IMG/VR virus record: IMGVR_UViG_3300032020_000845
Location: 42,980 to 106,979 of that record
Strand: one strand, 5' to 3'
Source: a virus
Length of the DNA: 64,000 nt
The notes below the pieces were generated by a model that saw only the letters and a program-made list of their open reading frames with translations, was not told where the DNA came from and ran no database searches. Made by a program: the position numbers and the translations under genes. Of the stretch, positions 12,074 through 53,018 are shown piece by piece. Numbering within the stretch: position 1 is the stretch's first letter; every line of letters begins with the position of its first letter.

Positions 12074-12090
12074 CACATACCTCCTAAATT

Positions 12091-27382: not shown

Positions 27383-27444
27383 AGTCTATTTTGCTTTCAA
27401 TTTTTTTGTCAATCTCTATAATAGTAATAGAAGTAATGATTTAG

Positions 27445-27470
27445 TAGGCTTGGAAACAGGTCTATTTTTG
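27445..27470 (+). terminator. Terminator-like hairpin between the replication and packaging regions
   Basis: TAGGCTTG-GAAA-CAGGTCTA (two G-U pairs) followed by TTTTT. Confidence 0.55.
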
Positions 27471-27647: not shown

Positions 27648-30551
27648 ATGTCACTTAATAGTGTTCGAAAATTATGCGGTGGAGAGATTCCAAGTTTTAT
27701 GAAAAAAGCTTTAGTTACCTTAGCGTATAGAGAAAAAGTTACTTTTTTGAAAGAAAAAGGGGCTATGTTATTCACTGACAAGGGATTTACAAAAATCGGT
27801 TGGAATCTTTTTCGTAAAACGCAGGATCCTGACGCTGGGTCGATCTGGACTGTTACAGCTATTAAAAATGATAAAGGTGAAGAGGAAAAATGGCTCGTGG
27901 CTTATGTTGATGAAGATAATAATGTGTTGCGAAAAGTGAAAGCTTCTATAAAGAAAACTGCACAAGAAGAACCTTTGAGATTTAGGCCAAGCAAAACATA
28001 TTTTCTAACAAATGAAGATTTAGAAGAAATGGAAATAGAACCAAGAAAAGGAGTTAGATTTGAGACTGATAGACTTGAATTTATTTGGGGGACATATGAA
28101 TTAGTAAGACAGAGTATTTCTCAGGATGGGTGGTGGGTAAAAGAAGTAAAACTTGGTCCTCCTTATGGAGAAACAGAAAAAGGTGCTTCCACAAAAATCT
28201 CTCACACTCCAGGAACAATTGTTCAAATAACTGTTCCTCACGGAAACCTTTATGAAAAATATAATGGTAAAATAGGAGAAGTAGTTGCTGCAGTTCCAGA
28301 CCGTTCTAAAGTTAGTTTTAAAGATATGCCTCCTTTTTGGTTTGAAGATAATGTAATTAATCCAATTGTTCCTTGCCCTCTTTGTAATGCAAATGTTTCT
28401 TTACAAATGTTAAAAAAGGTTGGGAAAGTTAAGTGTAAATGTAATGCTTTTTATACTTGGAGACAATTAGAAAAGATTGCAAATAATGATAGAATAAATA
28501 AAGTTGCTGCTGAAAAAATAAAGAAAATTGCTGATACTACTACAATAGAGGAAATAGATTTAGGTGGAGGTAAAAAAATTACTGTCGATTATAATAATTT
28601 TGATAACATGTATAGAGCATTTCTTACAAATGAACAAGGAATAACTGAGTCTGCCGCTACTAGAAATACTAAAGATGAAATTTATGAATGGGTTGAAGAA
28701 AAGAAAACAGAACTTAAAAAAACCTCTACAAAAACCGCTCGAATTGAAGAAAGAAAAGGTGAATATTGTGTAATAGCAGAATCTGGTAGAAGTATGGGAT
28801 GTTACTCTACAAAACCAGAAGCTGAGAAAAGATTAGACCAAGTAGAAATGTTTAAACATATGAAAGGTAAGAAAGCTCAGTTAACTGAACAAGATCCTGA
28901 TTATATTCCTGGATGTCCAGCATGTGAAGAAGCTGTAAAATGTGGTCTCGATTTTGAAGAAACTCATTCAACAGGATTTCCTGGTTTTTTGCAATTAGAA
29001 GATCCAGATACAGGTAAAGAAAGACTTATTCCTAGTCCTCATTATACATATGAAGAAAGAAAAAGATTAAGAGGTAAGAAAGCATGGAAAGATTCTAAAG
29101 GGGAAGAGATCAGTGCTGGAGATTTTGTTCTTTACGCCAGAGATCAAGGATATGACATAGACGCAATAGTTAGGGCAATCAACCAGAGTGGGAATGCCAC
29201 ACTAGAGTTTGACGATGGGAGAGTTATCTATGATGTTCCTGTGACAGGACTGGTTAAATCAGGATCGAAGAAGAAAGCACAAGAGGAACATAAATTATCG
29301 ACGGAAGAAATTATGCAACTTTTAGAGAGTACTAATACAGGGGGTTATTTTTATGCAGATAATTGCCGAATAAATTATTCAAGTGTTTCTGGTTGGTATT
29401 GTAAAGATTTTATTGGTGGTGAAATGGATACTTATAATATTACGGAGGATGAAGCAAGAAGAAAAATAGAAGAAAGTCTAGGAGATGGGAAGTTTGCTTC
29501 TAAAACTGCTCAAAATGTTATTATGTGGTTTGATAGTCCAAATGTTTTAAAAAGTTTAAAGCATTTACAAGGACCTCCAACAAGTCCTGCTACAGAAAAG
29601 CCTTTTGAAAAACCTGAAGAAGAAGGTGATGAGGATGAATTAGAACCTGAAGAAGAGGTTGAAAAAGAAGCTTCGAGGAAAACTGTAGCGGATCCTTTTA
29701 CGAACAAAAGATTTAGAATAGTTAACTTAGATAAATTTAGTATGGGTGATTTTGATATAGAAGATGAAGAAGAATATGAAGAACTTTTAAGACATAATAA
29801 TAAATATGCTCTTGTTACAGGTATTGCTATTTTAGGGTGGACTTTAGAAGAATATTATGTTGATGTACGCTTTGATGACGATTATATAATAACAGGCTTA
29901 AGTGTGTATCATTTAGAAGGAATAAAAGAAGCATCAACAAAAACAGCTCAAACTAAATTTGAATTAGAAGAATTAGTAAAAAAATATCAAAAAGGTTTTC
30001 CAGATATTCCTGAAAGTGATATTAGGGTAGGTATAAAATATGTATTAAAACAACACCCAAACAAAAATCCTGAAGATTTAGATGCGGAAATTGATGGAGA
30101 ATTACAAGCTATCTATGAGGATTTTTATAAACCAAGATTAGCTTCAATAGAAATAGTTGGTAAAAAAATTGAAAGTATTGTAAAAGAAGCAGATGGAATG
30201 GAAAGTTTAAGGGGTGGAGGACAGGGAGGAGGTTCAAGTAAATTGGAACCAATGCAATGGAATGTGCAGGAATCAAAATATCCTCCTCTGCCTAAAGAAG
30301 AAGAAGAGGAAGGTAAAGAAGTTCCTGAAACGGAAGAAGTTGAAAAAATTATAGTAGAAATTGACCCGGAAAGTAAATCTGTTCACGTGAATTTTAAGGG
30401 AGAAAAAGAGGGAGAAAAAGAGGGAGAAGAAGAAGTAAAAACTAAAGAACCAACAGAAATTCCTAAAGGAGCTGAAGTTCCTCCTGAAACAAAAGAAAAA
30501 GAAACAGAAGAGGGAGAGGAAGTTACGCCGGAGTCGCCAGTCGTTTTTTGA
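27648..30551 (+). CDS. Modular polyprotein 1 (967 aa) with about 10 K-x-A linkers
   Basis: ASIKKTAQ, ASTKISH, IKKIAD, TSTKTAR, KGKKAQ, RGKKAW, SKKKAQ, ASKTAQ, KEASRKTVA, KEASTKTAQ separate short unrelated modules. Confidence 0.8.
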   Translation: MSLNSVRKLCGGEIPSFMKKALVTLAYREKVTFLKEKGAMLFTDKGFTKIGWNLFRKTQDPDAGSIWTVTAIKNDKGEEEKWLVAYVDEDNNVLRKVKASIKKTAQEEPLRFRPSKTYFLTNEDLEEMEIEPRKGVRFETDRLEFIWGTYELVRQSISQDGWWVKEVKLGPPYGETEKGASTKISHTPGTIVQITVPHGNLYEKYNGKIGEVVAAVPDRSKVSFKDMPPFWFEDNVINPIVPCPLCNANVSLQMLKKVGKVKCKCNAFYTWRQLEKIANNDRINKVAAEKIKKIADTTTIEEIDLGGGKKITVDYNNFDNMYRAFLTNEQGITESAATRNTKDEIYEWVEEKKTELKKTSTKTARIEERKGEYCVIAESGRSMGCYSTKPEAEKRLDQVEMFKHMKGKKAQLTEQDPDYIPGCPACEEAVKCGLDFEETHSTGFPGFLQLEDPDTGKERLIPSPHYTYEERKRLRGKKAWKDSKGEEISAGDFVLYARDQGYDIDAIVRAINQSGNATLEFDDGRVIYDVPVTGLVKSGSKKKAQEEHKLSTEEIMQLLESTNTGGYFYADNCRINYSSVSGWYCKDFIGGEMDTYNITEDEARRKIEESLGDGKFASKTAQNVIMWFDSPNVLKSLKHLQGPPTSPATEKPFEKPEEEGDEDELEPEEEVEKEASRKTVADPFTNKRFRIVNLDKFSMGDFDIEDEEEYEELLRHNNKYALVTGIAILGWTLEEYYVDVRFDDDYIITGLSVYHLEGIKEASTKTAQTKFELEELVKKYQKGFPDIPESDIRVGIKYVLKQHPNKNPEDLDAEIDGELQAIYEDFYKPRLASIEIVGKKIESIVKEADGMESLRGGGQGGGSSKLEPMQWNVQESKYPPLPKEEEEEGKEVPETEEVEKIIVEIDPESKSVHVNFKGEKEGEKEGEEEVKTKEPTEIPKGAEVPPETKEKETEEGEEVTPESPVVF

Positions 30552-30588
30552 AAATAATTAGAAAATAAAATTTAATTGGAGGTAAACA

Positions 30589-33500
30589 ATGTTAATTCCA
30601 AAAGAACCAGAAAAAAATAAAAAAACACACAAAAAGTGGTTTAAGGCAGAGAAGCTAAAAAAAGTTGCTAAGAAAGAATCGTTGCCTCAAGAAAAGGAAG
30701 ACTTAATAAGAAAACATGGACAATCAAATATGAAAGAAACTGTTCTTTCATACGCTTGCACAAATTGTAAACATTCCTTTAGTGCTAATAGTTTAAGAAA
30801 AGAAATTATTGAGTCTGCAAAAAAAGGAAGCACTCTTGTTTATTGCCCAAAATGTGGTCTATTTCTTGTTGCAGATCGTAAAACAAAGATTCCTTCTAAA
30901 CTTGGTTCAAAAATAAACAGGAACGCTGATCTAACTGCTATATATCCCAATCAAGGAATAGTTCCAGGCTATGTGCCTAATACTTGGGTTGATCGTGCTT
31001 TACTTGAAAAAATTTGTCACGAACTAGGAAAATATGCCGAATCAGTAGGTATGTTTAATCCTCAATTAAAATTTCAAAGAGGCATTCGAGGAAAAGTTCG
31101 TGAAGGTTCTCCTCAAAATGTGAAATACGCGGAGTATACAATAGAGTCTGTGGATAATTATGATGTTAGATTTCGTGTTATTGCTACTGCTGGAATTACT
31201 CCTATCGGAAAAGTAATAATTTCTAATGTGTTTAGAACCTTGGACGGTAGAGAAATATCGTTCACACAAGAAGGAGTTGAAGGTTTTGTATCAGGTAAAG
31301 TTTATGGTTCTCCAGACGTTAAACCTGTTGTTCCTCAAATTTATTACAAAGAGCGTGATCCTTCGAGGTTTAGAGAAATAGTTGCTTCAAAGAAAACCGC
31401 TTTTGTGAAAGGTATTGATGATATTCCTAATATGGAGTTTTCAGAAATGAAAAGAAAAGTTATGGAAAGGTTAAAACGAAAGTATCCAGAATTCAAAATT
31501 TCAGATCTTGATGCTTATTCAGATAATACTATTGACGGGATGAGAGATCATTGGACTGATTTTGGCAATCCTCGTATGACTGTTCAAGATTGGTTTGAAA
31601 ATGTTGTGGATACGATCGATGCTGATTTAGAGGAGGAGGCTAGTCAGTTTATTACTAGAAAAAAAACAGCAGCAGGTGTTCCTATTCCTGGTCAACAAAT
31701 TGAATATCAAGGAAAGATATATACAGTTGATACTGTTGTTGGAGATACTTCTATATTAAAAGATGAAACAGGATTACAAACAGCTCCGGTTCCTAATTTA
31801 GAGTTAAATATTCAACAAGGAGGTTCTGGTTTAGCAGCTCCTGCTGCTCCTATTACAGCTCCAGTTGCTAAAAAGATTGAAGAAATTGTTAAAAGAGGAT
31901 TAAGGGATGAAAAAACTTTAGTTCCATTTACTGAATCGGATCCTGATTATAGTGTTGCAAAACAAACTGATGTTGATCCAGATTTTAGTACTCCTTATGA
32001 GAAATCTGACCAAGGGATTCTTGAGGAAAAGGATAGAGCTGTTCAGCAAATGTTTAGAGGAGGAACTTCAGTAAGACCTACTAAATCTGCTGCAGAGATA
32101 AGATGGCAAAGAGTGAAGGATGAGTTTTATGATACAGTAGAACAAGATACTGGTCCTTGGGTTTTGAAAACCCTTTCTCTTGAATCATATGTGGATGTAC
32201 CAAAACATTGGCTAGATGCTTTGAGAAAAGATCCAGAAGGCCTTTCTCAAAATTTTGTTTCACATTGGGCTGAGAAACATAGTTATACGTTGCGAGACGA
32301 TGAAAAACGAGAACTTCAAAAATTATTTGTAGATTGGGTGTTTGAATTTGAGACTGAAAAAGAAGCTTCTCTAACCAAAACTGCTCCTGAAAAAGCTGAC
32401 CTTGAAAGTATGGTTCAAAAATGTATGAGAGACAAAGGATGGGAACATGCTAAGTGTATGAATTATGTTGCTGGAGGTGTTTGGCATAGAAAAGGGAAAG
32501 TAGATGGACTACATCCCGGAATGCATGGCCACACAAAAGATGGCTATAAATTTGTTATTCTTGATGTTCAGGGAAATGAAATTCAAGTTGACCAAGAAAA
32601 TATAAGTGGTTCTTTTTGGACTGACCGAAATGAATGGGAAGGAAAAGAAAGTCCTCAATATGTTGAAAAATCATTGGAACCAGGAATGTATGGAAATACA
32701 AAAGATGGTTATAAATTTGTTATTCTTGATGTTGAAGGAGATACAATTCAAGTTGACCAAGAAAATATAAGTGGTTCTTTTTGGATTGGTAGAAACGAGT
32801 GGGAGAAAAAAGAAGCTCCTCACTATCTCCAATATGTTGGAAAACCATTGGAGGAGGAAGAGGGAGAAAAGGAAGCTTCAATAAAGAAAATAGCTGAACC
32901 AACAGGTTATCACGAAACGGATGAAACAGGAAAACAAATTGAACTTTCTCGTTTAAGAACACTTGTTGAGGATTATTATAGAGCAGGACAATTTCCCCCA
33001 GATTTTGATTATACTAAAGTAATGTCAGAGGTTTCTCGAATGACAAGAAAACAACTATTAGATATTCTTGACAAAAAACTTAAAGATACTCATTATCCTG
33101 TTGTTCATGCGAAGAAGAAAACAGCTGTTAGAACAAATATGTTATGTGTTGATAGTGAAGGAGAAAAGATTCAGTTTAAAAAATTGGAAGATGTTTTTAA
33201 TGATTTAGATGATAGATTTTTATCAAATATATACGATGAATTGGAGTGGCTTCCTTTGGATTCGAGAAAACTTAAAGAGGTATTAAAACTACTTGGATAT
33301 TCTCGTATTACTAATAATGATATACAACAGTTATTACAATGGATAAAAGAAGAATCTCCAGAATGGTTTATGACTCTTGAAGAATATAAAAAAGTAGCGG
33401 AAGGATTTATTCAAGAAAGTCTGAAAAAAGTTGCTTCAACAAAAACAGCAGCTACAGTAGATGAGATTAATGAGATTCTTCAAAAAAACTATGGAATAAC

Positions 33501-34770
33501 TTTTTCTATATATAGTAGAAGGATGAAATCCCTTCTAGACAGAATCCTCAAAGATAAAGGTTTTCCAATAGAAGAGTCGATAGATTCTTGGATGAAAGAA
33601 ACTGATGGAGGAAAGCTAATTGTTGGATCAAAAGGTAAATCATCTAACCAAATAGTTCAAGAAATTCGAAAAGCAGATCTTACTGAAAAGGATATTAAAA
33701 AACAAATTAAAGATGAAGAAGAAGGCGAAGAAACTTATAATGAAATGGCAACGGAAGTTGTATGTCCAAAAGCAGAAAAAGCTTTAGAAGATATGGCTGA
33801 TGATGAAGCGGCTCACGCAGAAAAGTTAGAGGAAATTGTTTTACCTGCTGTTGAAGAAGAAGAAGAGGATACTGAGAAAGAAGCTTCAATAAAAACAGCA
33901 GTTGAGTATGATAGTTGGGATAGTGAGGAATTAGATAATGGATGGACAGTTATTGGTGATCAAAGAAGTGATGATTCTGACTATAAACTTGTACGAGTTA
34001 GGGATACGGAAACTGCAAGTCATTATAAAACTCTTGCTAAAGGGTATAATGTTCTAGATTTTGAAGAGTATGTAGAAGAAGTTAAAAAGTGGCCTCCACC
34101 TTCATTTACAAAAAAGAAAACAGCTCAAGAAGAAGTAGAAGAAGAAAAACCAAAAACAGAATATAAAGAATTAAAAACAAAACCACACAAACCAGAGTTG
34201 GAAGTAGAAGAAGAAGCTATTGTTGCAACTCCAGAAATGCAAAAAACTTTTCACGAAATACAGAACCATAAGCAAAGGTTGACAGAAATTAAAGCTCTTA
34301 TAGAGGAATCTCGACGTAAGGTGGAAGAGGAAATTCGTAAAATTCAGGAGGAACACGGAGCGATTAAGGAAGCGTCAGATGTGCAGGAGGGGATCGAAAA
34401 GTTAGCTGCTCTTGTTGAACAAGCTGAAACTCAAATAGTTGACCTTGGAGAATTTTTTGCACATTTAGATACATCTATAAAGGAGAAAAAATTTAAGCCT
34501 TCAGATGCGTGGAGAGTCCAAAAGTTATTGGAAAAATTTGGAAAGGAGGCGGAAACTTATTTAGATAAGGCTGAAAAGGGATCTAATTCTTTAAATACTG
34601 AAGTGAAACAACGTATTCTTACAGTATTTCCAAAACGTGAAGGATCTATTGAAAAGGAAGCTACTGTTTTTGATGCTATAAGAGAACTTGGAGAAAATCT
34701 TTGGTCATATGTTAAGTCTTTAAGTGAAATTTCAGCAGAAGGAGAACAATTGGAATTAGTTCTGGAATAA
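30589..34770 (+). CDS. Modular polyprotein 2 (1393 aa) with about 11 K-x-A linkers
   Basis: VASKKTA, RKKTAA, TKSAA, KEASLTKTA, KEASIKKIA, AKKKTA, VASTKTA, IRKAD, KEASIKTA, KKKTAQ, SIEKEA; N-terminal Zn ribbon, half-ferritin module, C-terminal coiled coil. Confidence 0.8.
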   Translation: MLIPKEPEKNKKTHKKWFKAEKLKKVAKKESLPQEKEDLIRKHGQSNMKETVLSYACTNCKHSFSANSLRKEIIESAKKGSTLVYCPKCGLFLVADRKTKIPSKLGSKINRNADLTAIYPNQGIVPGYVPNTWVDRALLEKICHELGKYAESVGMFNPQLKFQRGIRGKVREGSPQNVKYAEYTIESVDNYDVRFRVIATAGITPIGKVIISNVFRTLDGREISFTQEGVEGFVSGKVYGSPDVKPVVPQIYYKERDPSRFREIVASKKTAFVKGIDDIPNMEFSEMKRKVMERLKRKYPEFKISDLDAYSDNTIDGMRDHWTDFGNPRMTVQDWFENVVDTIDADLEEEASQFITRKKTAAGVPIPGQQIEYQGKIYTVDTVVGDTSILKDETGLQTAPVPNLELNIQQGGSGLAAPAAPITAPVAKKIEEIVKRGLRDEKTLVPFTESDPDYSVAKQTDVDPDFSTPYEKSDQGILEEKDRAVQQMFRGGTSVRPTKSAAEIRWQRVKDEFYDTVEQDTGPWVLKTLSLESYVDVPKHWLDALRKDPEGLSQNFVSHWAEKHSYTLRDDEKRELQKLFVDWVFEFETEKEASLTKTAPEKADLESMVQKCMRDKGWEHAKCMNYVAGGVWHRKGKVDGLHPGMHGHTKDGYKFVILDVQGNEIQVDQENISGSFWTDRNEWEGKESPQYVEKSLEPGMYGNTKDGYKFVILDVEGDTIQVDQENISGSFWIGRNEWEKKEAPHYLQYVGKPLEEEEGEKEASIKKIAEPTGYHETDETGKQIELSRLRTLVEDYYRAGQFPPDFDYTKVMSEVSRMTRKQLLDILDKKLKDTHYPVVHAKKKTAVRTNMLCVDSEGEKIQFKKLEDVFNDLDDRFLSNIYDELEWLPLDSRKLKEVLKLLGYSRITNNDIQQLLQWIKEESPEWFMTLEEYKKVAEGFIQESLKKVASTKTAATVDEINEILQKNYGITFSIYSRRMKSLLDRILKDKGFPIEESIDSWMKETDGGKLIVGSKGKSSNQIVQEIRKADLTEKDIKKQIKDEEEGEETYNEMATEVVCPKAEKALEDMADDEAAHAEKLEEIVLPAVEEEEEDTEKEASIKTAVEYDSWDSEELDNGWTVIGDQRSDDSDYKLVRVRDTETASHYKTLAKGYNVLDFEEYVEEVKKWPPPSFTKKKTAQEEVEEEKPKTEYKELKTKPHKPELEVEEEAIVATPEMQKTFHEIQNHKQRLTEIKALIEESRRKVEEEIRKIQEEHGAIKEASDVQEGIEKLAALVEQAETQIVDLGEFFAHLDTSIKEKKFKPSDAWRVQKLLEKFGKEAETYLDKAEKGSNSLNTEVKQRILTVFPKREGSIEKEATVFDAIRELGENLWSYVKSLSEISAEGEQLELVLE
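32509..32847 (+). repeat. Tandem duplication of a 55-aa (165-nt) module
   Basis: L-x-PGM-x-G-x-TKDGYKFVILDV-x-G-x2-IQVDQENISGSFW-x2-RNEWE-x-KE-x-P twice, with high DNA identity. Confidence 0.9.
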
Positions 34771-35970: not shown

Positions 35971-38900
35971 ATGTCCTTTAAAGAAATCGTAGACGAAAAA
36001 TATAAAGAAAAGTCAGAACTGATTGCTCCTATGGAATCAGTTGATGCTTTAACTTTTGTTACCTCTCACAAATGGTTAGGAGAAAAACCATTTCCGTCTC
36101 AAAGTCTTATTTTAAAATTGTTATATGGATTGTGGAAAAAATACCCTATTATTGAGGAAGAACAGAAATTAATTGATACTTTAAAGACTGCGTGGAATAT
36201 TAACATTGATTTAGAAAACAGAGATATAAATCAAGTTATTGAAGTTTTAATTCTTGTAATTGGCCGTAGAGGAAGTAAAAGTTCAGTTGTTTCTTGGATT
36301 GCATCATTTGAGGCTTATAAACTTTTATGTAAAGGAAATCCACAAAAGTATTACAAAATAAGAGAAAGACACCCTATACATATTCTTAATTGTGCTTCTG
36401 ATGGAGATCAAGCTAAAGAAACGTTTAATCTTATAAAAGACAATATTAAGAAAATTGATTTTTTCCAAAAATATATAGATTTTGACAAAGACAACGAAAC
36501 AGAAATGCGTTTATTCTCTCCATATGATTTATTTTTAAATTCTCAAATACGTAGATATAATGAAACTCGGGGAAAAGGATCAATGAAAAAGAACCTATTG
36601 CGGGGTTCTATTTGTATTGAGTCTGTTACTACATCTGCTGCAACTAAAAGAGGAAAAGCAATCATTGGGTTAATTTTTGACGAATTTGCTCATTTTGGAA
36701 GATCTAAATATAGAAAAAGAACTTTGGAAGTTATGGAAGCACCTCAAACTGATCATGCAATGTGGGTTGCTCTTACCCCTTCTGTAAAAGATTTTGGAAA
36801 AGACGGATTAATTATTGCAATTAGTAGCCCTGCAGAAAAAGCTGGAGAATTTTATACTTTGTATTGTTTAGCTGGGGGAATGGAACAAAATGAAAGTGAA
36901 AAACTTCCACCGAATCCAAAATATTTATTGTTACAGCTTTCGACTTGGCAAGCAAATCCAAGGTTTGTAAAAGAAGATTTTGTAGATGATTATAGTAAAG
37001 ATCCTGTAAATGCTTCAATGGAATATGGAGCACATTTTGCAGAACCAGCAGCTTCATTTTTAAATCCTCAAAGAATTGACGATATGGTAGTTGAAGGAGC
37101 CCCAATTTTGTTACGGGGTAGGTCAGGACAATTGTATATTATTGTAGTTGATCCAGCGAGTACTAGTGATACTTATGCAATTGCTTGGGGGCATAGAGAA
37201 GATAGACCAACTGAAAAGTATTGGATTGATGGTTTGAAGGGATTCGAACCTACAACGAAAAGATTAGGGGATGGAAGGATTATTATAGAACCAATTGACT
37301 CTGACATTGTAATGGATTTTCTTTTAACTTTAATTAGAAATTTAAATGTGATGGGAAAGCAGGTTATGGAAATTTGTTATGATCAATGGAATTGTAAGAT
37401 AGGATCAGCTAAACTTTTTACAAATGAAGGAATGAAAACAATTGAAGAATTGTGTAAAGAAAACAAGCCTATTTTAGTTGCAACAAAAGATGGTTTTGCA
37501 AAGGCTGAAAAATTTTATGATAATGGTGTAAGATCTGTTGTAAAAATTCGAACTAAATTTGGTTATGAAGATGTGGGCACTAAAAATCATCCTTTTTGGA
37601 CTAAAAAGGAATGGCAGTGTATTGGAGATTTAAAAGTAGGAGATGAAGTAGCAATACAACCTTCTGCACTTTTTAATAAGTGCTCAACAATTTCTGTAAA
37701 CAGAGCTATTATTTATGGGTATTTAACATCTGAGGGGCAATGTTCTGGAAATAACACTATAATTGGATTTTCTAATATTGAAAAAGATATTCTTGATGAT
37801 TATTGCTTTTTATTTGAACAAGAATTTGGAAAAGTTCCTCATAGAAGGCTTATTAATAAAAAATTTTATAAGACGAGGAAAGATTCAAGAGGGAACATTG
37901 TATTGGAGGATACTGCAGCCTTATGGTCAAAAGAGATTACTGAAGAATTACGAAAGCATGAAGTATTAGGGACGTCATTTACAAAACATGTGCCCAAACC
38001 TATTCGCGAAGGGTCAAAAGAAGTGTGTTGTGCTTATCTTTCTGCATTATTCGAAGGAGATGGAACAATTGGATTTTATCCACAAAAAAATACAAAATAT
38101 GGACAAACAGATACTTATATTTGTTATGATTCTCGTTCTGAAGACCTTGTTAAAGATGTGCATTTAATTCTATTAAATTTGGGAATAATATCTTCGAGAA
38201 TGACCGGCATACAAGTAGGAAAACCTGTACATAGAATAACAATTAGAGGAAAGAATATTGATAGATTTGCAGTTCTTATAGGTTTTCGTGGTAAACGAAA
38301 AAAAGCACGTTTAGAAAAAGTTTTAGATCATCGTAGGCCATTGAAGAAATTTAGAGTTAAATCTTATTTGGATAATGATAATATTTTTTGGGATAAGATT
38401 ATCTCAATTGAAGAAATGCCTCCAGAAAGAGTATATGATATTACTGTTCCAGGAAAGCATTCTTTTGTTGTTAATGGATTTATTACTCATAATAGTATTG
38501 ATAGTATTCGTACATTGAGAAAAATGAAATTACCCGCATTTGAAACAACTTTTACGAACCCATATAAAGGTGTTATATATGGGACCTTTTTAGAAAAATT
38601 AAATCAAGGACAAATGTGTTGCTATGAAATAGATCCTGATCCTGCTGAGAACTGGGTTGCTAAGTTAAAATTAGAATTAAAATATTTACAAAAGATAATA
38701 AGTGGGGGAACTACATATTATGCAGCTCCAACAAGTGGTCCAGTTACCACAGATGATTTTGCAGATTGTTGTGCTAATTTAGTATACCGATTATCATCTC
38801 GTAAAGAAATGTCAAGCAAAACTATTAGAGAATTACATAAGCAACTTGGATCTCCAATTCCATTAGGAAGAGTTATTAATCCTCAAAAAGGGGGCCCAAT

Positions 38901-38973
38901 ATGGGGGGGTAAGAAAAAAGAGGATATAAGAGACAGACTTCGAGGAATAGATTCAAAAAGAAGTTGGAGATAA
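35971..38973 (+). CDS. terL: Terminase large subunit (633 aa after splicing), intein-containing
   Basis: Walker A GRRGSKS, Walker B LIFDEFAHF, ISSP, TW-x2-NP, nuclease VDPAS, YDQWN/S, TDDFAD. Confidence 0.88.
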   Translation: MSFKEIVDEKYKEKSELIAPMESVDALTFVTSHKWLGEKPFPSQSLILKLLYGLWKKYPIIEEEQKLIDTLKTAWNINIDLENRDINQVIEVLILVIGRRGSKSSVVSWIASFEAYKLLCKGNPQKYYKIRERHPIHILNCASDGDQAKETFNLIKDNIKKIDFFQKYIDFDKDNETEMRLFSPYDLFLNSQIRRYNETRGKGSMKKNLLRGSICIESVTTSAATKRGKAIIGLIFDEFAHFGRSKYRKRTLEVMEAPQTDHAMWVALTPSVKDFGKDGLIIAISSPAEKAGEFYTLYCLAGGMEQNESEKLPPNPKYLLLQLSTWQANPRFVKEDFVDDYSKDPVNASMEYGAHFAEPAASFLNPQRIDDMVVEGAPILLRGRSGQLYIIVVDPASTSDTYAIAWGHREDRPTEKYWIDGLKGFEPTTKRLGDGRIIIEPIDSDIVMDFLLTLIRNLNVMGKQVMEICYDQWNCKIGSAKLFTNEGMKTIEELCKENKPILVATKDGFAKAEKFYDNGVRSVVKIRTKFGYEDVGTKNHPFWTKKEWQCIGDLKVGDEVAIQPSALFNKCSTISVNRAIIYGYLTSEGQCSGNNTIIGFSNIEKDILDDYCFLFEQEFGKVPHRRLINKKFYKTRKDSRGNIVLEDTAALWSKEITEELRKHEVLGTSFTKHVPKPIREGSKEVCCAYLSALFEGDGTIGFYPQKNTKYGQTDTYICYDSRSEDLVKDVHLILLNLGIISSRMTGIQVGKPVHRITIRGKNIDRFAVLIGFRGKRKKARLEKVLDHRRPLKKFRVKSYLDNDNIFWDKIISIEEMPPERVYDITVPGKHSFVVNGFITHNSIDSIRTLRKMKLPAFETTFTNPYKGVIYGTFLEKLNQGQMCCYEIDPDPAENWVAKLKLELKYLQKIISGGTTYYAAPTSGPVTTDDFADCCANLVYRLSSRKEMSSKTIRELHKQLGSPIPLGRVINPQKGGPIWGGKKKEDIRDRLRGIDSKRSWR
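37393..38493 (+). mobile_element. Intein (367 aa) with LAGLIDADG homing endonuclease
   Basis: Starts CKIGSAKLFT; block B GTKNHPF; GYLTSEG and ALFEGDG; ends VYDITV...FVVNGFITHN followed by Ser. Removal restores YDQWNS. Confidence 0.92.
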
Positions 38974-40338: not shown

Positions 40339-43300
40339 ATGATAAAATTAGGTAGTGAACCGAATTGGGTTTTTGCAGATCTTGATTTGATTTCTGAATT
40401 ACTGGTTGAAAATAATATTCCTATTGAACATCCAAATTACGAAAAATACAAAGATTATATATTAGGCAAGTTTGAAGGAACGTGGTTTGTTTCTCCAGAG
40501 GAAATGGAAAAGGCAGTTCTTCAATATATTCCAAAAACAGCTTCTTTAAATTTTCGAAAAACAGCTGAACCTGAAACCCTTCAAGAAAATTTCTACGAAC
40601 CAGGAAAGTCCGATGAATATCCAAAAGGACCTAAAAAACCTCGCTTACGCTTTCCATTTTATAATTATCCAGATGATCAAGGAAATATAATTAACATAAA
40701 ACCTGATATTTCTAATCCAATGGAATATGATACAACTCCAGGACCTCATCCTCAAGGACCTGGAATATGTGGAAGTTTAAGTATGAAAAAGAGAGCACAA
40801 TCTAAAGGTCTTCTTACCTATAAAAAGCTTACGGATATTATGATGGTAGTGAAAGATCTTCAGCAGGTTGACTCTTTAGACTCTGACGAGGTTGAAGACC
40901 TTGCTGAAAATCTATATAATATTTTTGGAAATGATATATTGTCGGGAGCAATCTTAGCGGCGCATGAAGATAAAGCTTCTAGGTTTATACAAATGATAGG
41001 AGAGTATTTAGCTTTATCAACGAAAATAGGGTTGAAACCTTTAACTAAAGAGCTTTTAGAGAGTTTGATTAAGGTTTGCCAAGATCCAAGTAACCCAAAA
41101 CATCAGATAAAGAAAGTTCCTTTGGAAGATGTTTTTGAACCTAAGAAAGAAGAAGATGAATTTGAGGAAACTGAAGAAGAGATAGGTGAAAGATGGAAAG
41201 AAAAAGAAAAACAGATTCTACCTGAAAAAAAAGAACTCTCTCCAGAAACAATGGAAGTTCCCTATACCTTTCTACGAGACAAATACACTGAAGATGAAAT
41301 ATGGGATATAGCTAGAGGTAGAAAAACTGATGTATCTCCAGAAGAAATAGAAATGGCTAAATTTGTAATTGAGAGAGGTATTGTAGCCGGTAGATTGGGA
41401 ATGAGAAAAACTTCAACAACTGTTTCTGAACCAACTCCTGATGAATCATTACATGAACAACAAGGAGAACATCCAGGGCATACTTATTTTCAAGGAAGAG
41501 ATGAATGGGAAGATAAAGAACCTGATCAGGGGTTTGATATATTATTTCCAGAGAAGGTAAGAATAAAAAGGGATCCTTGGCTTTTTGAAGATAATCCAGT
41601 ATCTGAAATGACTGCAAGTAGATTAAATATGAGAAAGAAAGCTTATATTAATTTAGATAATTTAAAAAGATTATATGAAGGACAATTAAAACATCTTGGA
41701 GTTTATGATAGAGAATTAATGGAAGAAGTTAGAACAGATTTATTAGTAAATTTAGAGAATTTGATAAAAAGTACATTTAAAAAGTATAAAGGTTGGGAAG
41801 AAGAAGATATTCCAGCGGATCTTGAAGTTATTCAAGAATATGTTGATGGTTTAAAACAATCGCTAAAAAAAGATTCAGATTTAATGGTAATGATTGATTC
41901 GACAGTGAATGTTATACATCATTTTTTTGAGGATCATGGAGAACATTATTTGCTTTCTGAGATAGTTAATCCTAGACAAATTGAAAGGGCAGAAGAATTA
42001 CTTGCTACTATTTTTTCGCAAGTTAGTGAAAAATTGGAAGAAAAAGAAGAAAAACCAAAACCTTCCATACCTAAAAAAGTTCCTTTTGTTGATAAACGAG
42101 GTAATCCTCTTAAAATAAATGATATTGTATTTGCAAAAGATGAAGGATATTTTGGTAAATATGGAAGAATTGTATCCGTTGATCCTGAACCAATATATCT
42201 TTCTGATTTAGAAAAGTGGACTTATTCTATGTATGTAGAAACTACAGTAACAGAAGAAATGTTGGCAACTGAAGTAGTGTTAAGTAATGATATTGATAAG
42301 GATTCTATTGCGGTTGAGGCTACTAATCATATTCTTCAATTGGTAAAGAAAAAAGCATTTGATGTGAACAGTGCTTTTGATGTAATATTAGATGAATTGT
42401 ATATTGTTCTTGATCAAGAAATGATTCAGAAAATTAAAAATAATTTATATGATGAAGGGATAGATATAGAAAAAGAAGCTAAAAAATTATTGAGTGTAAG
42501 AAAAAATAATTCAACTTTTCAATTAAGTATACGAAAGAAAGCAATTATTTCTCCATTGCAACTAAAAAAGTTGTATGAATTAGAATTGTTATATAGAAAA
42601 GGAAATTTTGGTATTGAAGAGCAACTCGACAAATTATCAGAATATATAGTAAAAGAATTAATAGAGTTTTTAAATGATTGGTTACAATTTTATATTGCTG
42701 AGGAAGGACTAAATGAAGAAGCAAAAGCAGCAACAAATAGATTAGAATCTTGTAAACAAGAACTCGAGAATGCTTTTGATATCGATTCAAAAATAGTTGC
42801 AATAGATACTACTATAAATACAATGCATGTTGATTATGATGTCTTTGAACATTTAATTATGACATTTGAAGAATATGCAGAAAGGGAATTTAGATCAAAT
42901 AGAAAAGAGATACAAAAACACTATCAAGTATGGGATTCTTTGAAGACTTTTCTTCAGGAACAGGGTAAACTTACTGAAAGAATTTTTGAAAATAGATTAA
43001 ATATGAGAAAAATAGCTCTTGATCCTTTAACTCAAAGAGAATTATTACAAACTGGAATATTATTTCCATCTCCGGAATTTATAGAAAAAATGAACCTAAA
43101 AAAGGAAAAAGATAAAGAAGAACAAAAAGATAAATATAGAAGTTTTCAAAAACCTTTTGAACTAAAACATGAAAAAGGTTTAAAAGAAACTATACGAAAG
43201 AATATTGAGGAACAATTTATTATACCTCAACAACTAAAACTTCGATTTGACAAATTTGCGCAGGAATCCCCTAGAACCTTGGGGCCTCAAATAACAAAAC

Positions 43301-44778
43301 AAAAAATAAGAAGATTATATGAACAAGAAGCTAAAGGTATTTATGATGAAGAATTACTGGATGAAATTATTTCAGGATTTTTAGTAACTTTAGAAAGTTG
43401 GGTTAATTTTGAAGAATACAAAATAAAGTATCTTTTGCAATATGTAACTGATGATAGTTATGATCTAATTAGAGAAGCAGAAGATTTAATTCAACCTTTA
43501 CACTCAGCAACAACTCCACAAGAGAAAATGATTGCAATAGATACTGTAATAAATATTGTTCATCAAACGGGAAAATATGGAGAGTATTTGATAAAAGGAA
43601 TAGACCCTGGAGATTTATCCTTTTTTGATGACCTAAGTAATTTGAAAGTTAGTAGTTTAAGTTTAAAAAGAATTGCTCAAATTACAGAAGTTAACATTGG
43701 AGATGAAGTAGAATTTGACACTACTCGTTATTTTCGAGTTGGTAGAAGTAAACAAGGAGGAGTTTTAAAAGGTAAAGGAATTGTTAGAACGAAGAATGAG
43801 GATGGTTCATATGATATTGAGATAACAGAAATAACTAATGCTCATATAGATATTGCTCATATATTTAAACCTGGGCGTACTACTCCCTTTTTGGTAGATG
43901 AAATAAAAGCATTTGTAAAACCAAAATTTGAGCCTAAAAAAGAAATTCCAACTCCTGTCGAGGAGCCTAAAATTGAAAAACCTAAAGAAGTAAAAGTTGA
44001 ACCAGAGAAAGTTCCTGTTGAAAAGCCTATTATTTTTGAGTTAGCAGAACCAGAAGAAGAAGAAATTCCAATACCTGTTGAAGAGTTTGGAGAACCTGAA
44101 CCAAAAAAACTAAAGAAAAAATTTCCAACTTGGAAAGAATTGGGGCAAATTGTTTGGGAGTCTTTTAAAAGACCTGTGACAAGACCTTTTGGTAGTATAT
44201 TAAATATGAGAAAAGCTAATAAAATATCAGGCCGAAAACTCCTGTCTGTAGGCTTATGGGCTATTTATAATGGAGAGATATATAGTAAATTAGAAGATGT
44301 GAATAAATACGAGGGACATGAAAATTGGTTTGTAGAATTAGGTTTACCTGTGAAAGGAACAGAATACGATTATATTACTCGTGGTATTTATAGACCAGAT
44401 AGAATAGTATGGTATGAAGGTACTGGAACTTTTGAAGAATTTTCTGATAATATTGAAGAGTTAAGAAAAAAGTTAGAATTACCGGAGAATGTTAAAATTG
44501 AATCTGCCCCGGGTTTCTCAGAAATAAAAAAAGCTGAATTAGATATGAGAAAATCAGATATACAAAAAGATGTTCCTATTGAAAGTGCTTCTCCTATATT
44601 TAAACCTGAAGATACAATTAAGAATAAATCAATGGAAGAAGCTACATACAAAGTAATGGAATATGATCCAAAGGTTGATGAATATTTAATTGTTGGTGGT
44701 GTTAAAGATAGAATAATAAGAGTAGATCGAAAAACATTGGAAAATATTTGTGACTTAGTTGAGGGGGAGGGGAAATGA
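40339..44778 (+). CDS. Modular polyprotein 3 (1479 aa) with about 11 L-x-M-R-K-x-A linkers
   Basis: SLNFRKTA, SLSMKKRA, RLGMRKTS, RLNMRKKA, LVKKKA, QLSIRKKA, RLNMRKIA, LRFDKFA, SLSLKRIA, ILNMRKA, ELDMRKS. Confidence 0.82.
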   Translation: MIKLGSEPNWVFADLDLISELLVENNIPIEHPNYEKYKDYILGKFEGTWFVSPEEMEKAVLQYIPKTASLNFRKTAEPETLQENFYEPGKSDEYPKGPKKPRLRFPFYNYPDDQGNIINIKPDISNPMEYDTTPGPHPQGPGICGSLSMKKRAQSKGLLTYKKLTDIMMVVKDLQQVDSLDSDEVEDLAENLYNIFGNDILSGAILAAHEDKASRFIQMIGEYLALSTKIGLKPLTKELLESLIKVCQDPSNPKHQIKKVPLEDVFEPKKEEDEFEETEEEIGERWKEKEKQILPEKKELSPETMEVPYTFLRDKYTEDEIWDIARGRKTDVSPEEIEMAKFVIERGIVAGRLGMRKTSTTVSEPTPDESLHEQQGEHPGHTYFQGRDEWEDKEPDQGFDILFPEKVRIKRDPWLFEDNPVSEMTASRLNMRKKAYINLDNLKRLYEGQLKHLGVYDRELMEEVRTDLLVNLENLIKSTFKKYKGWEEEDIPADLEVIQEYVDGLKQSLKKDSDLMVMIDSTVNVIHHFFEDHGEHYLLSEIVNPRQIERAEELLATIFSQVSEKLEEKEEKPKPSIPKKVPFVDKRGNPLKINDIVFAKDEGYFGKYGRIVSVDPEPIYLSDLEKWTYSMYVETTVTEEMLATEVVLSNDIDKDSIAVEATNHILQLVKKKAFDVNSAFDVILDELYIVLDQEMIQKIKNNLYDEGIDIEKEAKKLLSVRKNNSTFQLSIRKKAIISPLQLKKLYELELLYRKGNFGIEEQLDKLSEYIVKELIEFLNDWLQFYIAEEGLNEEAKAATNRLESCKQELENAFDIDSKIVAIDTTINTMHVDYDVFEHLIMTFEEYAEREFRSNRKEIQKHYQVWDSLKTFLQEQGKLTERIFENRLNMRKIALDPLTQRELLQTGILFPSPEFIEKMNLKKEKDKEEQKDKYRSFQKPFELKHEKGLKETIRKNIEEQFIIPQQLKLRFDKFAQESPRTLGPQITKQKIRRLYEQEAKGIYDEELLDEIISGFLVTLESWVNFEEYKIKYLLQYVTDDSYDLIREAEDLIQPLHSATTPQEKMIAIDTVINIVHQTGKYGEYLIKGIDPGDLSFFDDLSNLKVSSLSLKRIAQITEVNIGDEVEFDTTRYFRVGRSKQGGVLKGKGIVRTKNEDGSYDIEITEITNAHIDIAHIFKPGRTTPFLVDEIKAFVKPKFEPKKEIPTPVEEPKIEKPKEVKVEPEKVPVEKPIIFELAEPEEEEIPIPVEEFGEPEPKKLKKKFPTWKELGQIVWESFKRPVTRPFGSILNMRKANKISGRKLLSVGLWAIYNGEIYSKLEDVNKYEGHENWFVELGLPVKGTEYDYITRGIYRPDRIVWYEGTGTFEEFSDNIEELRKKLELPENVKIESAPGFSEIKKAELDMRKSDIQKDVPIESASPIFKPEDTIKNKSMEEATYKVMEYDPKVDEYLIVGGVKDRIIRVDRKTLENICDLVEGEGK

Positions 44779-47700
44779 CTTTATTTATGAGAAAGAAAGC
44801 AGGGATTGAAACTCATGAATATAGATTTAAACAATTTCACAACCATAAAATTCCAGCATATACTTTTATTGGATATCAAGAAATTCCTTCTGGTGGGAAA
44901 ATGTTGATGTTTAATTGTAATATTTGTGAGAGTACCTTAATGTTATTTCCAGAAGAAGTTAAAGCTAATATAGATAGAATTTCTGGTTTGCTAGATGATT
45001 GGGAACAAGTTGTTAGTAACATAAAAAAGGCTAATGAATTTACATCCATAGAAAAAGAATTTGTATTAAAATTTGTAAAAGAATTTGAAAGGATGAATGA
45101 CGCTAAAGAAATTTATGAGGAATTAGTTAGTGATACATTTATGTTTGAACTGACAAATCATTTGGAAGAGGATTTAGGCATTTCAAAAGAGGATAGCAAT
45201 GATTTTGCTCTTGCTATTTATAATCGATTATATTCGGATTATCGTGTATTTACAGAAGTTCCTTTTCAAAGTGTTGGAAGTTTAAGGTTTGAGAATATAA
45301 AGAAAAATATAGATAAAGTAAAAATTTCCACAAAATATAGAGGTCCTGTTGTATCAATTTTAGAAAGTATTGCTCCGGCAGTTTGGAGTGCTTCTGGTTT
45401 AAAAGAGGCAAAAGATATAATTATAAGTACAGTTTCAGGTTCTCATATTGATGAAGATGATAAACAAAAGATTTTAAATAATGTTGATAAAATTAACAAT
45501 TTATTAGAATTGCAAAAGTATATTGCAAACTCAATTTTGTTTTATGAAGGAATGGGGACAAAGTTAAGTATGCGAAAGAGATCTCAAATAGATAAACAAC
45601 TATTTTTTGACTTTTATGGAGTATCTTTACTGTCAGATAATTACTTAGAACAAAATCCTTACGCAAAACAATATAGAAATATGATTGTACAAAGTATAAA
45701 AGATGTTTATGTTCCTCTGATTACTAAAATGGTTTATAGTGAACTTAGAAAACATACTGATCGCATGTATAATTGGGAGGATTGGATAGAAGAATTTAAT
45801 CTTAAAAATGTCAATAGTCTTACTTTAGAACAACTAGCTCAAATATATAATGAAGGAGTCTGGGTAACAGAATATGGTGGTCCCTCTTGGGGGTCTATTG
45901 TTGAATCTCTAATTCAACTTAAAAATACTTCTGATACTAATCAACTCATAACTGTTATAGATCATATCAATGATATTGAACACAATACTGGTTTAATGTT
46001 TCACGATTTTCCGAAAGTCAAAAAGTGGTTTTCTGATGCTTTAGAAACTAAAGCTCAAGCAACTCCTGAACAACTTATACCTTATCTTTCTTCTGATTTA
46101 CAAAAATTAGTTATAGAAGATTTAAGATTAAAAGGAAAAGAAATTATATCTCCCGAAAAATATATTACAAGAGATGAAAAATTTGAACTTGCCCAAAATC
46201 CATCAACTCCTCCAGAAATCTTAGCTGAATTAGCAAAAGATAAAGATGAATTTGTTCGTATAAATGTTGCAGGAAATCCAGAAACACCTCCAGAAATCTT
46301 AGTAGAATTAGCGAAAGATATAGATAAGTATGTTCGTATACGGGTGGCTTATAATCCCAATACCCCTCCCGAATCATTAGTGGAATTAGCTAAAGATGAA
46401 GATGAAGAGGTTCGTTTGTATATTAAAAGAAATCCTTCTACTCCTCCTGAAACTTTAGCAGAATTATCAAAAAATACATTAGAGTGGGAGCGTCCTGAAA
46501 TAAAAGAAGAAGAAAGCTTTAACTTAAGTATGAGAAAAACATCAATTTCGGACCAAGAAATTATTAACAATACTATTTTCTATTTCACAAAAGAAAGAAT
46601 AGATTTACCGAAAACTGAAACATATATTTATGATTATCTTCTAAATCAACATCCAGAATTAAGTTCTTGGGAAATAGAAAGACTTACACAAAAAGTATTA
46701 AATATTTTACCCAAACCAGTTTTAACAAAAGTTCATAAAACAGCAAAAGTGTTTACTATGGGAACTCCAGATACTTTTGAATCTGGGTGGGCAATATATC
46801 AAGGAAACATTTATATAAATTATGGTAGGGAGGAACACCATTCTCAATGGTTTGAAAAATTTGGTCTTCCTACTTCAGGAAAGGCTTTTGACGAGTTAGT
46901 TCGAGGGTATTCTGAAGGCGGAAGAATTGTTTGGTATGGAACTGGAGATTATAATGAGTTTGCAGATTATTTACCAGAATTAGTAAATGCTTTAGGAATA
47001 TCAGATCCTACTATACAAATGATTGATTATACAACACAAGAATTTAAAACTTTAGCAATGAAAAAGGAAACATCTATCCTCGATTACCCACATAAATATT
47101 TAGATTCTGAAATATGGGATTTGTCAACTGATCCTCCAAAACTAAAAAAAGATATTAAAAGTTTTATTATGAATCGTTTTATTGATTACTTGGTAAAAGA
47201 AGGATTAAATAGTCCAGAATTGTGGTGTAAGGAATTTTACTATACAGGGTCAACTGCTACACATCAATATCAAAAATCTTCTGATATAGATATTCATATA
47301 AGAGTCGATTGGGAAGCATATAAAAAAACTAATCTAGATAAAGCAAAAGAAGATGCTGAAGAAATGCGTAAAGATTTGTTAAAAGTGTTTTGGAATACTT
47401 TAAACAAAGAATATCTACCTGGAACTTCACACCTTCTTACATATTATATATTGTCTGAATGGGAAGATGTAATGACACAAACGGAAGAAGCATATGATAT
47501 ACAAAAAGATGTTTGGATTGTTCCTCCTCAAAAAATACCTGAAACATATGACACAGAACAAAAAATAGATTTACTACAAGAACAAGCAAACTACATTATG
47601 GAAAAATTAGATGTGGAATTAGGTAAAACAAAAAGAGATTTTGTTGACTATAAGGTTTTAAAAGAGCTATTAGGTTCTTACGAAGGAAACAAAGCAGATA

Positions 47701-52109: not shown

Positions 52110-53018
52110 ATGGCAAATAAACATATTGAAATAAAACACAAAGAAATTTTATATCCTTCTGTGCTTGTTAAAACTTCAAAGGCGGGAGGAAGCGGAACTG
52201 TAGTTTATTCCAAACCTATTAGTAAAGGTTCAGAAGAGTATGAAACTTATGTTTTAACAAATTGGCATGTGGTGGAGGCTGCTATTGCTGTAAAACGAGA
52301 ATGGGATCCATTACTTTCGAAAGATGTTAAAAAGGAAACGAGAGCAACTGTTACCGTAGAGTTTTATAGGTATAAAAATCTTAGCTGTAACATTGGAAGA
52401 ACTGCAGTAGAAGCGGATATTGTTGCCTATGATAAAGATCAAGACATTGCTTTAGTTAAACTAAGATCCGCGGAACCTGTAAAATATGTAGCACGATTAC
52501 ATCCAAAAGATGTTAAAAATATTCACATTTTTGATACTGTATATATTTGTGGGTGCAGTTTAGGGCATTCTCCTATTCCTACTAATGGAGAAATTACTTC
52601 AATGGATGATGAAATTGATAATTACAAATATTGGATGAGTAATGGACAAATTATATACGGTAATTCAGGTGGAGGAGTTTACCTTGTTAAAACTATTATA
52701 GTTGACGCCCAAAAAGAAAAAGAAGAAGAGTTTTTCGAATTCATAGGGATTCCAAGTAGAATTGAAGTTATTGGTTGGGGAGATAGTATAACGCACATGG
52801 GGTATTTTATTCCAATTGGTAGAATTTATGATTGGCTGGAGGAGGAGATGTTTCAGTTCATTTTTGACTCTAAATTTACTTCAACGCAATGCGAAAAAAT
52901 GAGAGATAAAAGAAAAGAGGAGGCCCGTAAAGCATTTGAAAGGCGTGAAAGAAAAGCTGAAGAAGATTCTGGTTTAGATGAAATAGAAAATAAAGAAGAA
53001 GATGAAAATGAAGAATAA
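52110..53018 (+). CDS. Trypsin-like serine protease without signal peptide
   Basis: Triad motifs VLTNWHVV, DQDIALVKL, YGNSGGG; acidic tail. Confidence 0.88.
   Translation: MANKHIEIKHKEILYPSVLVKTSKAGGSGTVVYSKPISKGSEEYETYVLTNWHVVEAAIAVKREWDPLLSKDVKKETRATVTVEFYRYKNLSCNIGRTAVEADIVAYDKDQDIALVKLRSAEPVKYVARLHPKDVKNIHIFDTVYICGCSLGHSPIPTNGEITSMDDEIDNYKYWMSNGQIIYGNSGGGVYLVKTIIVDAQKEKEEEFFEFIGIPSRIEVIGWGDSITHMGYFIPIGRIYDWLEEEMFQFIFDSKFTSTQCEKMRDKRKEEARKAFERRERKAEEDSGLDEIENKEEDENEE

Follow-up and report, generated by a model that had tools for sequence, protein, structure and literature searches.

In phage T4 the protease gp21 acts on the internal proteins IPI-III and Alt, which carry a capsid-targeting sequence. 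Herpesvirus assemblin cuts maturation and release sites of the form (V/L)-x-A↓S (here and below, ↓ marks a cut or a module border), and in Staphylococcus phage 80alpha Prp/L27-type processing removes a leader of about 10-14 residues from the capsid and scaffold proteins, at LNLQFF↓A. The logo and substrates of the SPN3US protease gp245 have been described (PMC10052503, PMC5694885), with the motif A-x-E, which is also that of phiKZ gp175, and the ejection or inner-body cargo is thought to be injected. For phage G, N-terminal sequencing gave a mature gp27 of 255 of 282 residues and 28.2 kDa (Hua et al. 2017, PMC5646251, Table 1). For polyvalent proteins, packaging and joint delivery with the DNA have been predicted, and proteolytic processing has been proposed (Iyer, Burroughs, Anand, de Souza, Aravind 2017, PMC5512222). 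Here we analyse the last 64 kb of a single virus contig of 106,979 bp (IMG/VR record IMGVR_UViG_3300032020_000845), called the window below. It encodes, next to the terminase, two large modular proteins from open reading frames (ORFs) that we name ORF1 and ORF2. Along both recurs a short peptide, the junction tag, which sits exactly at module borders and may be the cleavage site of a head-maturation protease.

The junction tag and its place in ORF1 and ORF2

The genes needed here are as follows (lengths in amino acids, aa).

27648..30551, + strand: ORF1, 967-aa modular protein with its own GGAGGT ribosome-binding site; nine tags listed by the first-pass annotation and two extra
30589..34770, + strand: ORF2, 1393-aa modular protein with its own GGAGGT ribosome-binding site; eight listed tags and two extra
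35971..38973, + strand: large terminase, intein-interrupted

Both proteins are rare, with 10 relatives for ORF1 and nine for ORF2 in 5.8 billion clustered proteins; one ORF1 relative carries the label of a Cloacimonetes metagenome-assembled genome as its source. The two genes lie in the same order on two IMG/VR contigs, G001 (168 kb, about 90% complete, 159 ORFs) and G002 (73 kb). Alignments comprise 12 ORF1-family and 10 ORF2-family sequences, at an overall identity of about 40-54%.

The coincidence of tag columns with module borders is our strongest result. ORF2 is built from conserved blocks (aa 1-271, 362-501, 770-846 and 1180-1393) with non-homologous, exchangeable cassettes between them, and the conserved tag columns are the borders between conserved blocks and stretches that are non-homologous between phages. 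A tag fills ORF2 columns 271, 361 and 769 in 9-10 of 10 sequences, column 846 in 5-6 and column 1179 in 5-7 (the others reading S-L-R-F-A↓QEE there); ORF1 columns 105, 185 and 621 are filled in 10-11 of 12, and column 364 in eight. Per-column conservation flips exactly after the Ala, as in ...KK[TKI]A↓EPTGYHETD, ...K[KT]A↓AGVPxPGQ, ...K[KT]A↓QNV and REIVASKKTA↓variable. The mean conservation jump at tags is 0.52 in the ORF2 family and 0.44 in the ORF1 family, against 0.15 and 0.13 at random columns, and random column sets never matched the observed means in 5000 resamplings (P<0.0002). The first-pass annotation had taken the peptides for linkers between modules and had staked that proposal in part on positional conservation in homologues. 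The tags clearly do keep their alignment columns, in 7-11 of 10-12 homologues, and their position at the borders of conserved and variable blocks bears out the linker role. At least nine tag-bounded modules are present in each of ORF1 and ORF2, with cassettes that vary among relatives.

All 17 peptides of that annotation are in frame at the nucleotide positions it gave, with an offset of 0 in each case. Its list was thus real throughout but short, leaving out four sites of the same type (ORF1 aa 15-21 and 842-848; ORF2 aa 22-27 and 499-501). The full set is given below, with the conservation values on either side of a border in brackets.

27690..27710, + strand: PSFMKKA, ORF1 aa 15-21, extra site; resembles dialect B (see below); kept in 6-8 of 12 homologues
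27942..27965, + strand: ASIKKTAQ, ORF1 aa 99-106; conserved-to-variable border; KAS..K.A in 12 of 12 homologues
28185..28205, + strand: ASTKISH, ORF1 aa 180-186; variable-to-conserved border; S-K-[TI]-S↓HTPG, with Ser as last residue, in 10-11 of 12 homologues
28722..28739, + strand: TSTKTA, ORF1 aa 359-364; directly 5' of the fold island aa 365-403; kept in 8 of 12 homologues
28863..28880, + strand: KGKKAQ, ORF1 aa 406-411; directly after the island aa 365-403; kept in 5-6 of 12 homologues
29070..29087, + strand: RGKKAW, ORF1 aa 475-480; in a cassette particular to this phage
29265..29282, + strand: SKKKAQ, ORF1 aa 540-545; precedes the fold island aa 550-612
29496..29513, + strand: ASKTAQ, ORF1 aa 617-622; variable-to-conserved border; K-[KT]-A↓QNV in 10-11 of 12 homologues
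29664..29690, + strand: KEASRKTVA, ORF1 aa 673-681; behind an acidic run; VEKEASKKTAQ in homologues
29925..29951, + strand: KEASTKTAQ, ORF1 aa 760-768; directly before the helical island aa 770-845
30171..30191, + strand: ESIVKEA, ORF1 aa 842-848, extra site; aligned to SIKK[KTE]A↓[DQ]G in 12 of 12 homologues; borders the conserved C-terminal tail
30652..30669, + strand: KLKKVA, ORF2 aa 22-27, extra N-terminal K-K-x-A; K24, K25 and A27 invariant in a 3-sequence alignment (A1), K24 and K25 90% conserved in a 10-sequence one (A2)
31381..31401, + strand: VASKKTA, ORF2 aa 265-271; conserved-to-variable border (0.62 to 0.09); 9-10 of 10 homologues
31657..31674, + strand: RKKTAA, ORF2 aa 357-362; variable-to-conserved border (0.04 to 0.74); K-[KT]-A↓AG in 9-10 of 10 homologues
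32083..32091, + strand: K-S-A, ORF2 aa 499-501, extra site; K499 and A501 invariant; conserved-to-variable border (0.77 to 0.11)
32359..32385, + strand: KEASLTKTA, ORF2 aa 591-599; in a cassette common to one homologue; Pro after the Ala
32869..32895, + strand: KEASIKKIA, ORF2 aa 761-769; variable-to-conserved border (0.08 to 0.84); K-K-x-A↓EPTGYHETD in 9-10 of 10 homologues
33109..33126, + strand: AKKKTA, ORF2 aa 841-846; conserved-to-variable border (0.85 to 0.07); 5-6 of 10 homologues
33430..33450, + strand: VASTKTA, ORF2 aa 948-954; within a variable region
33877..33900, + strand: KEASIKTA, ORF2 aa 1097-1104; behind an acidic run; end of a ferritin/rubrerythrin-like helical module
34111..34128, + strand: KKKTAQ, ORF2 aa 1175-1180; next to the conserved C-terminal helical block; S-S-K-K-[TIK]-A↓QEE or S-L-R-F-A↓QEE in homologues

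The motif is strongly enriched in the two proteins. K[KT]A occurs 15 times in ORF1 and ORF2 together, where residue shuffles of the same proteins lead one to expect 2.29 +/- 1.47; the pattern [AST]S.{0,2}K..[AV] occurs 10 times (0.22 expected) and KEAS six times (0.10 expected), and in each case none of 5000 shuffles reached the observed count, which rules out compositional bias. K[KT]A density is 6.4 per 1000 aa in ORF1 and ORF2 and 0.68 in the other ORFs of the contig, a difference of about 10-fold, and 11 of the 18 KTA tripeptides among all ORFs of the window fall within these two. Synonymous codons differ from site to site (ACT/ACC/ACA, GCT/GCA/GCG, AAA/AAG). The tag is therefore a feature of the peptide, and a DNA repeat or recombination signal is ruled out.

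Written out, the tag consensus is [K/E]-[A/S]-S-[I/K/L]-K-[K/T]-A with Q, E, D or A as the next residue, or [A/S]-S-x-K-K-T-A in a shorter form. When sites are aligned on the Ala (position 0), Lys is fixed at -2 and Thr or Lys stands at -1; the flanks hold Lys at -3 (40%), Ser at -4 or -5, and Q, E, A or D at +1, Gln being the commonest. Looser alignment columns accept E, I or V at -1 and sometimes Ser or Gly at 0, so that the constrained core is K-x-A, where x is T, K, E, I or V.

Some sites hold two such cores in tandem. The first-pass annotation had read these as KEA-S...KTA pairs after poly-Glu runs, which is right for five sites, four of them behind acidic runs, and had suggested that double cutting would excise the spacer. 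Among 164 sites of the families, 25% have an upstream K-x-[AS] that ends 4-7 residues before the core, compared with 7.8% at random positions, and some homologues read KKTS-IKKTS-IKKTA. K-E-A is accepted as a core at other junctions, in SIKKEA↓DG and in the FRKEA↓P of capsid proteins. Because tandems are enriched and K-E-A is an accepted core variant, double cutting is plausible, and the tandem sites, a real tendency, could then release a hexapeptide. At any one junction, however, homologues do not consistently keep the upstream half, which may equally well lengthen the recognition site.

Pfam gave ORF2 only a marginal rubrerythrin-like match (23.1 bits), PHROGs gave neither protein a match, and neither database revealed an embedded peptidase or a recognised conflict domain in either. 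A tblastn search of GenBank phages, phage G included, found no match to ORF2 (ORF1 was not searched); no stand-alone shorter homologues of ORF2 were found, and an Atlas search with its C-terminal block came back blank. The AlphaFold2 (AF2) model of ORF1 is poor, with a mean predicted local distance difference test (pLDDT) score of 45 and confident islands only at aa 365-403, 550-612 and 772-832, and a fold search with ORF1 returned nothing above Z 7, only common helical matches. Each confident island has tags on both sides, in low-confidence stretches. This arrangement is weakly consistent with tags as module borders.

Two stretches within the proteins deserve a separate description. A promiscuous domain of about 45 aa (..G.Y.TK.EAEKRL.QVEMFKHMK) lies at window positions 28740-28880, ORF1 aa 365-410. 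It recurs on more than 20 IMG/VR contigs (loci L007-L028, one of 427 kb), either as a free 45-aa gene or as part of other large phage proteins, several of which have ..AS.QKA.. or ..KTA.. peptides beside it. At about aa 640-760 of ORF2 (window positions about 32509-32869) there is a tandem duplication of a unit of about 55 aa, ..DGYKFVILDV[QE]G..IQVDQENISGSFW.., seen only in the cassette of this phage.

Related tags occur in the large proteins on the other side of the terminase.

40339..50396, + strand: two giant ORFs (1479 and 1873 aa) with dialect B tags, 3' of the terminase

The consensus of dialect B is [AS]-S-L-[SN]-M-R-K-[KTE]-[AS]-[QE]. The tags of ORF1 and ORF2 had been set apart as a dialect A, but as a separate code this does not stand; both share the core [RK]-K-x-[AS]-[QE] and differ only further upstream. 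Among the 159 ORFs of G001, 11 of 13 dialect A matches fall in the homologues of ORF1 and ORF2, and 22 of 25 dialect B matches in three other large proteins, the dialects being strictly partitioned by protein.

Gene borders, too, coincide with tags, and genes have been split or fused precisely at them. ORF4 of the window (start at 44775-44801) opens with MTLFMRKKA↓GIETHEY, and this leader matches an internal junction, VSLNLRKKA↓GIESHEY, of a fused 3263-aa protein in G001. Residues 260-577 of ORF4 (window 45552-46505) correspond to a separate 518-aa gene in G001 (150473-152029), which stands among tail genes and itself opens with a tag, MLYSLSFRKTS↓QLDKQLF. Leaders that end in a tag are found in ORF1 (to aa 21), in ORF2 (to aa 27), in ORF4 (MTLFMRKKA) and in this G001 protein (MLYSLSFRKTS). 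Since a module encoded alone still keeps the tag as its leader, the tag may double as a loading signal.

Head genes of relatives and the reading of the tag

The same core recurs in head proteins of relatives. The head genes of G001 run in the order portal, a 1185-aa tag-bearing protein, a 1444-aa protein, a 168-aa protein and a 329-aa capsid protein. Over its first 300 or so residues (protease domain at 10268-11167 of locus L029, - strand) the 1444-aa protein matches phrog_18299, a head maturation protease family, and it continues as a long Glu/Lys-rich, helical, scaffold-like region; the protease domain is homologous to gp19 of Bacillus phage G, annotated as a head maturation protease (E 3e-27). 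The G001 capsid protein is 40% identical to phage G gp27, and the capsid proteins of cluster C mycobacteriophages are more distant. In four relatives the N-terminus of the capsid protein reads ..[KQ]AS[AS]YPPGF[RSQ]K[EKT]A↓P.., and in a fifth the gene begins just past that point. The protease-scaffold fusions, of 1300-1440 aa, keep three K-x-A positions at 38% identity. Thus, in these relatives, the motif is found alike on the capsid protein, the protease-scaffold and the giant proteins.

Phage G adds a mapped cut. Given the 255 of 282 residues and 28.2 kDa of mature gp27, only a cut at VALA27↓Q28 fits the gp27 sequence. The cut in this homologous head system therefore falls between Ala and Gln, which matches the position of the tag and its commonest next residue. 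Elsewhere in the phage G head module, gp20 opens with MSKKISRLKKTA↓L, gp19 holds V-K-T-A and gp21 K-K-T-A.

From these observations we infer that the tags are cut, which bond and which enzyme are involved, and that the proteins enter the head. ORF1 and ORF2 would be cargo polyproteins that a large myovirus expresses late, each a string of small independent modules delimited by short tags. The tag would be the recognition and cleavage site of a head-maturation protease, cut directly after the Ala inside the procapsid, and at the N-terminus it would probably also serve as a loading (targeting) signal like the capsid-targeting sequence of T4. Because each module brings or keeps a border tag, phages could gain, lose or swap modules and processing would still work. 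Cleavage at the tags by a protease of some kind seems to us likely; that the enzyme is the head-maturation protease, cutting after the Ala, is the reading we favour by a modest degree. It fits the K-x-A on the capsid and protease-scaffold proteins of relatives and the cut after Ala in phage G.

Several observations weigh against this assignment. All of the head-protein evidence comes from relatives, as the contig lacks capsid, portal and head-protease genes of its own. In those relatives Pro follows the tag of the capsid protein, a residue before which many serine proteases fail to cut, and the site that corresponds by homology to the phage G cut is about 45 residues deeper in the protein. For both reasons the N-terminal tag of the capsid protein could act as a signal without being cut itself. 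In phage G, P3 of the mapped site (V-A-L-A↓Q) is Ala where the tag has Lys. The relatives' protease has an unconfirmed fold; its AF2 model has a pLDDT of 41 and is unusable, Pfam gave no match even at E values up to 10, a sequence search of the PDB found nothing, and an hhalign comparison with HK97 gp4 was negative, with a profile of four sequences only. At ORF2 position 846 four homologues lack the tag and read AKKEGLEK, and the K-K-A at aa 19-21 of ORF1 falls within a predicted helix in the AF2 model. Finally, a second conserved protease, trypsin-like, is encoded nearby.

52110..53018, + strand: trypsin-like serine peptidase (PF13365) with His/Asp/Ser intact and a charged C-terminal tail; an alternative candidate enzyme

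This peptidase, perhaps as one of two enzymes for the two dialects, or else a host protease, could be what cuts the tags. Its triad is intact, it has a G001 orthologue at 71% identity and a paralogue at 33%, and it is syntenic with the giant dialect B genes; the motif is rich in Lys and Arg, and the strict partition of the dialects by protein could reflect two enzymes. Yet the module border follows the Ala and not the Lys, the related capsid protein of phage G is cut after Ala, and the same core stands on the relatives' capsid protein and protease-scaffold fusion, the usual substrates of a head protease. The residue six before the catalytic Ser is Gln and not Asp, with no sign of a classical trypsin pocket, though this is a weak point, and a Prp-type protease is absent from G000, G001 and G002. 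We regard another enzyme as unlikely. Alternatively, the tags could be uncut docking or loading signals for the scaffold, the portal or the capsid interior, the giant proteins staying as beads on a string. A pure separator would not need to be kept as a leader when its module is a separate gene, and the Pro after the tag of the capsid protein points the same way; some polyvalent proteins are also packaged unprocessed, such as the N4 virion RNA polymerase (discussed in PMC5512222). Loading, however, would hardly call for so many tags, as many as 11 in one protein and flanking almost every module on both sides, nor for a conservation border that falls exactly after a small residue and is then followed mostly by Q, E, D or A. 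The two roles are also not exclusive, as the targeting sequence of T4 is itself a cleavage site, and docking without cleavage appears to us a rather poor bet.

The tags might also have no specific recognition at all, being basic linkers that bind DNA or balance charge, relics of recombination, or a by-product of composition. The proteins are indeed rich in Lys and Glu, and modules have clearly been exchanged at tags. Against this, the shuffles never reach the observed counts, and the tags hardly ever depart from Lys at -2 or Ala at 0, between flanks that are wholly divergent. DNA binding sits poorly with tags that often stand behind acidic runs, and with a motif of only 9-27 nucleotides whose codons differ, DNA homology cannot account for its upkeep. 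This explanation is very improbable.

If the tags are cut, as the head-protease reading has it, the four genes around the terminase (about 5700 aa) would give about 50 small proteins, carried in the capsid and probably injected, a payload far larger and more modular than the internal proteins of T4. It would explain how a phage can take up new modules with no need for further regulatory or loading signals. A simple sequence rule, K-x-A at module borders, would then serve to predict cargo in uncultured phages, and it would define the specificity of the phage G-type head protease. It is tempting to speculate, though we would give it little chance, that K-x-A is a plug-in code of a whole clade (phage G-like, Bxz1-like and many uncultured large phages), in which tagged modules are loaded into the head and cut after Ala, and the two dialects differ in how they are recognised, through two proteases or through the time or place of cutting, so that release is ordered or specific to a compartment. 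The sequence of such a phage would then be enough to list everything it injects.

Contig and gene neighbourhood

CheckV puts the completeness of the contig at about 55%, and its 5' end falls within a baseplate-wedge gene. Its genes include PolA fused to a uracil-DNA glycosylase (UDG), RecA, a DnaG-type primase, Mre11/Rad50-like proteins and ThyX; no capsid, portal or head-protease gene was found on these 107 kb. Nearly all genes are on the + strand, at a GC content of about 31%. A terminator-like hairpin at 27443-27466 lies 5' of ORF1 and ORF2, which we assign to the late, packaging gene block because the terminase adjoins them. The terminase intein carries a LAGLIDADG homing-endonuclease domain (aa about 483-841). 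The terminase homologue of G001, with 1078 aa, is likewise long, and the portal of that relative, with 1066 aa, seems interrupted too.

Directly 5' of ORF1, at window positions 25701-27382, are genes for an AAA+ ATPase (PF00004 and AAA_lid_3, 471 aa) and a small helix-turn-helix protein, a pair that is syntenic in G001 and G002. An AAA+ unfoldase adjoining the genes of polyproteins could have a functional link to them. Many HNH or homing-endonuclease genes are scattered through the structural region of relatives, one of them between the homologues of ORF1 and ORF2; they lie at 2784-3575, 11164-12147 and 13684-14505 in G001 (locus L029), at 9565-10551 and 11382-12362 in locus L037, and in the region 69170-70207 of locus L032. 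Elsewhere in the window, 6116-7198 encodes a dockerin type I repeat protein, 8118-10634 the PolA with an N-terminal uracil-DNA glycosylase-superfamily domain, and 53038-53469 an MgtC-family protein.

Comparison with known processing systems

We found no publication that describes a K-x-A junction motif. No published cleavage motif was found for phage G, a 2025 paper on this phage being silent on the matter, and no measured cuts were found in the literature for phages of the Bxz1 type.

The systems of T4 gp21, phiKZ gp175 and SPN3US gp245 resemble the one proposed here in that a single short motif recurs on capsid and scaffold as well as on numerous internal proteins of the head, it forms the end of N-terminal leaders, and some proteins have multiple sites. 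They differ in the motif. The proteases of T4, phiKZ and SPN3US cut after Glu (L/I-x-E in T4, A-x-E in SPN3US, L/I/A/S-x-E across the S77 class), whereas here the core is K-x-A and the border follows the Ala. The T4-type S77 protease (PF03420) was considered and rejected, being absent from G000, G001 and G002 and facing a motif without Glu at the border. The architecture differs as well; ours are chains of 1000-3000 aa with some 10 or more cassettes and a tag at almost every joint.

The head module of phage G (gp19, gp20, gp21 and gp27) is the closest cultured relative of the head genes of this clade, although the mapped V-A-L-A site of gp27 is unlike K-x-A. ORF1 and ORF2 also resemble polyvalent proteins. 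In PMC5512222 these are very large proteins of many modules, with extensive mosaicism, among late or structural genes, and ORF1 and ORF2 each join many unrelated domains in one polypeptide in the late/structural region beside the large terminase (TerL). That text ascribes processing to embedded zincin-like peptidase domains, and the part of it available describes no shared junction peptide.

Two further systems cut next to Ala. Assemblin cuts after Ala with a P3-x-Ala geometry and is fused to its scaffold, as is the protease of the relatives, but its P3 is Val or Leu where the tag has Lys. Prp/L27-type processing likewise removes short leaders that end before Ala, and the L-N-x-x-x-x-A spacing of dialect B resembles LNLQFF↓A; in contrast, the tag has K-K or K-T before the Ala and not F-F, and its sites are mostly internal and number in the dozens. 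This type of leader processing was rejected, as PF04327 is absent from G000, G001 and G002 and the residues before the Ala do not fit. By analogy with T4 gp21, phiKZ gp175 and SPN3US gp245, the pattern in ORF1 and ORF2 is that of a maturation-protease code, but one with a K-x-Ala core, a candidate protease of a different family and an unusually polyprotein-like architecture.

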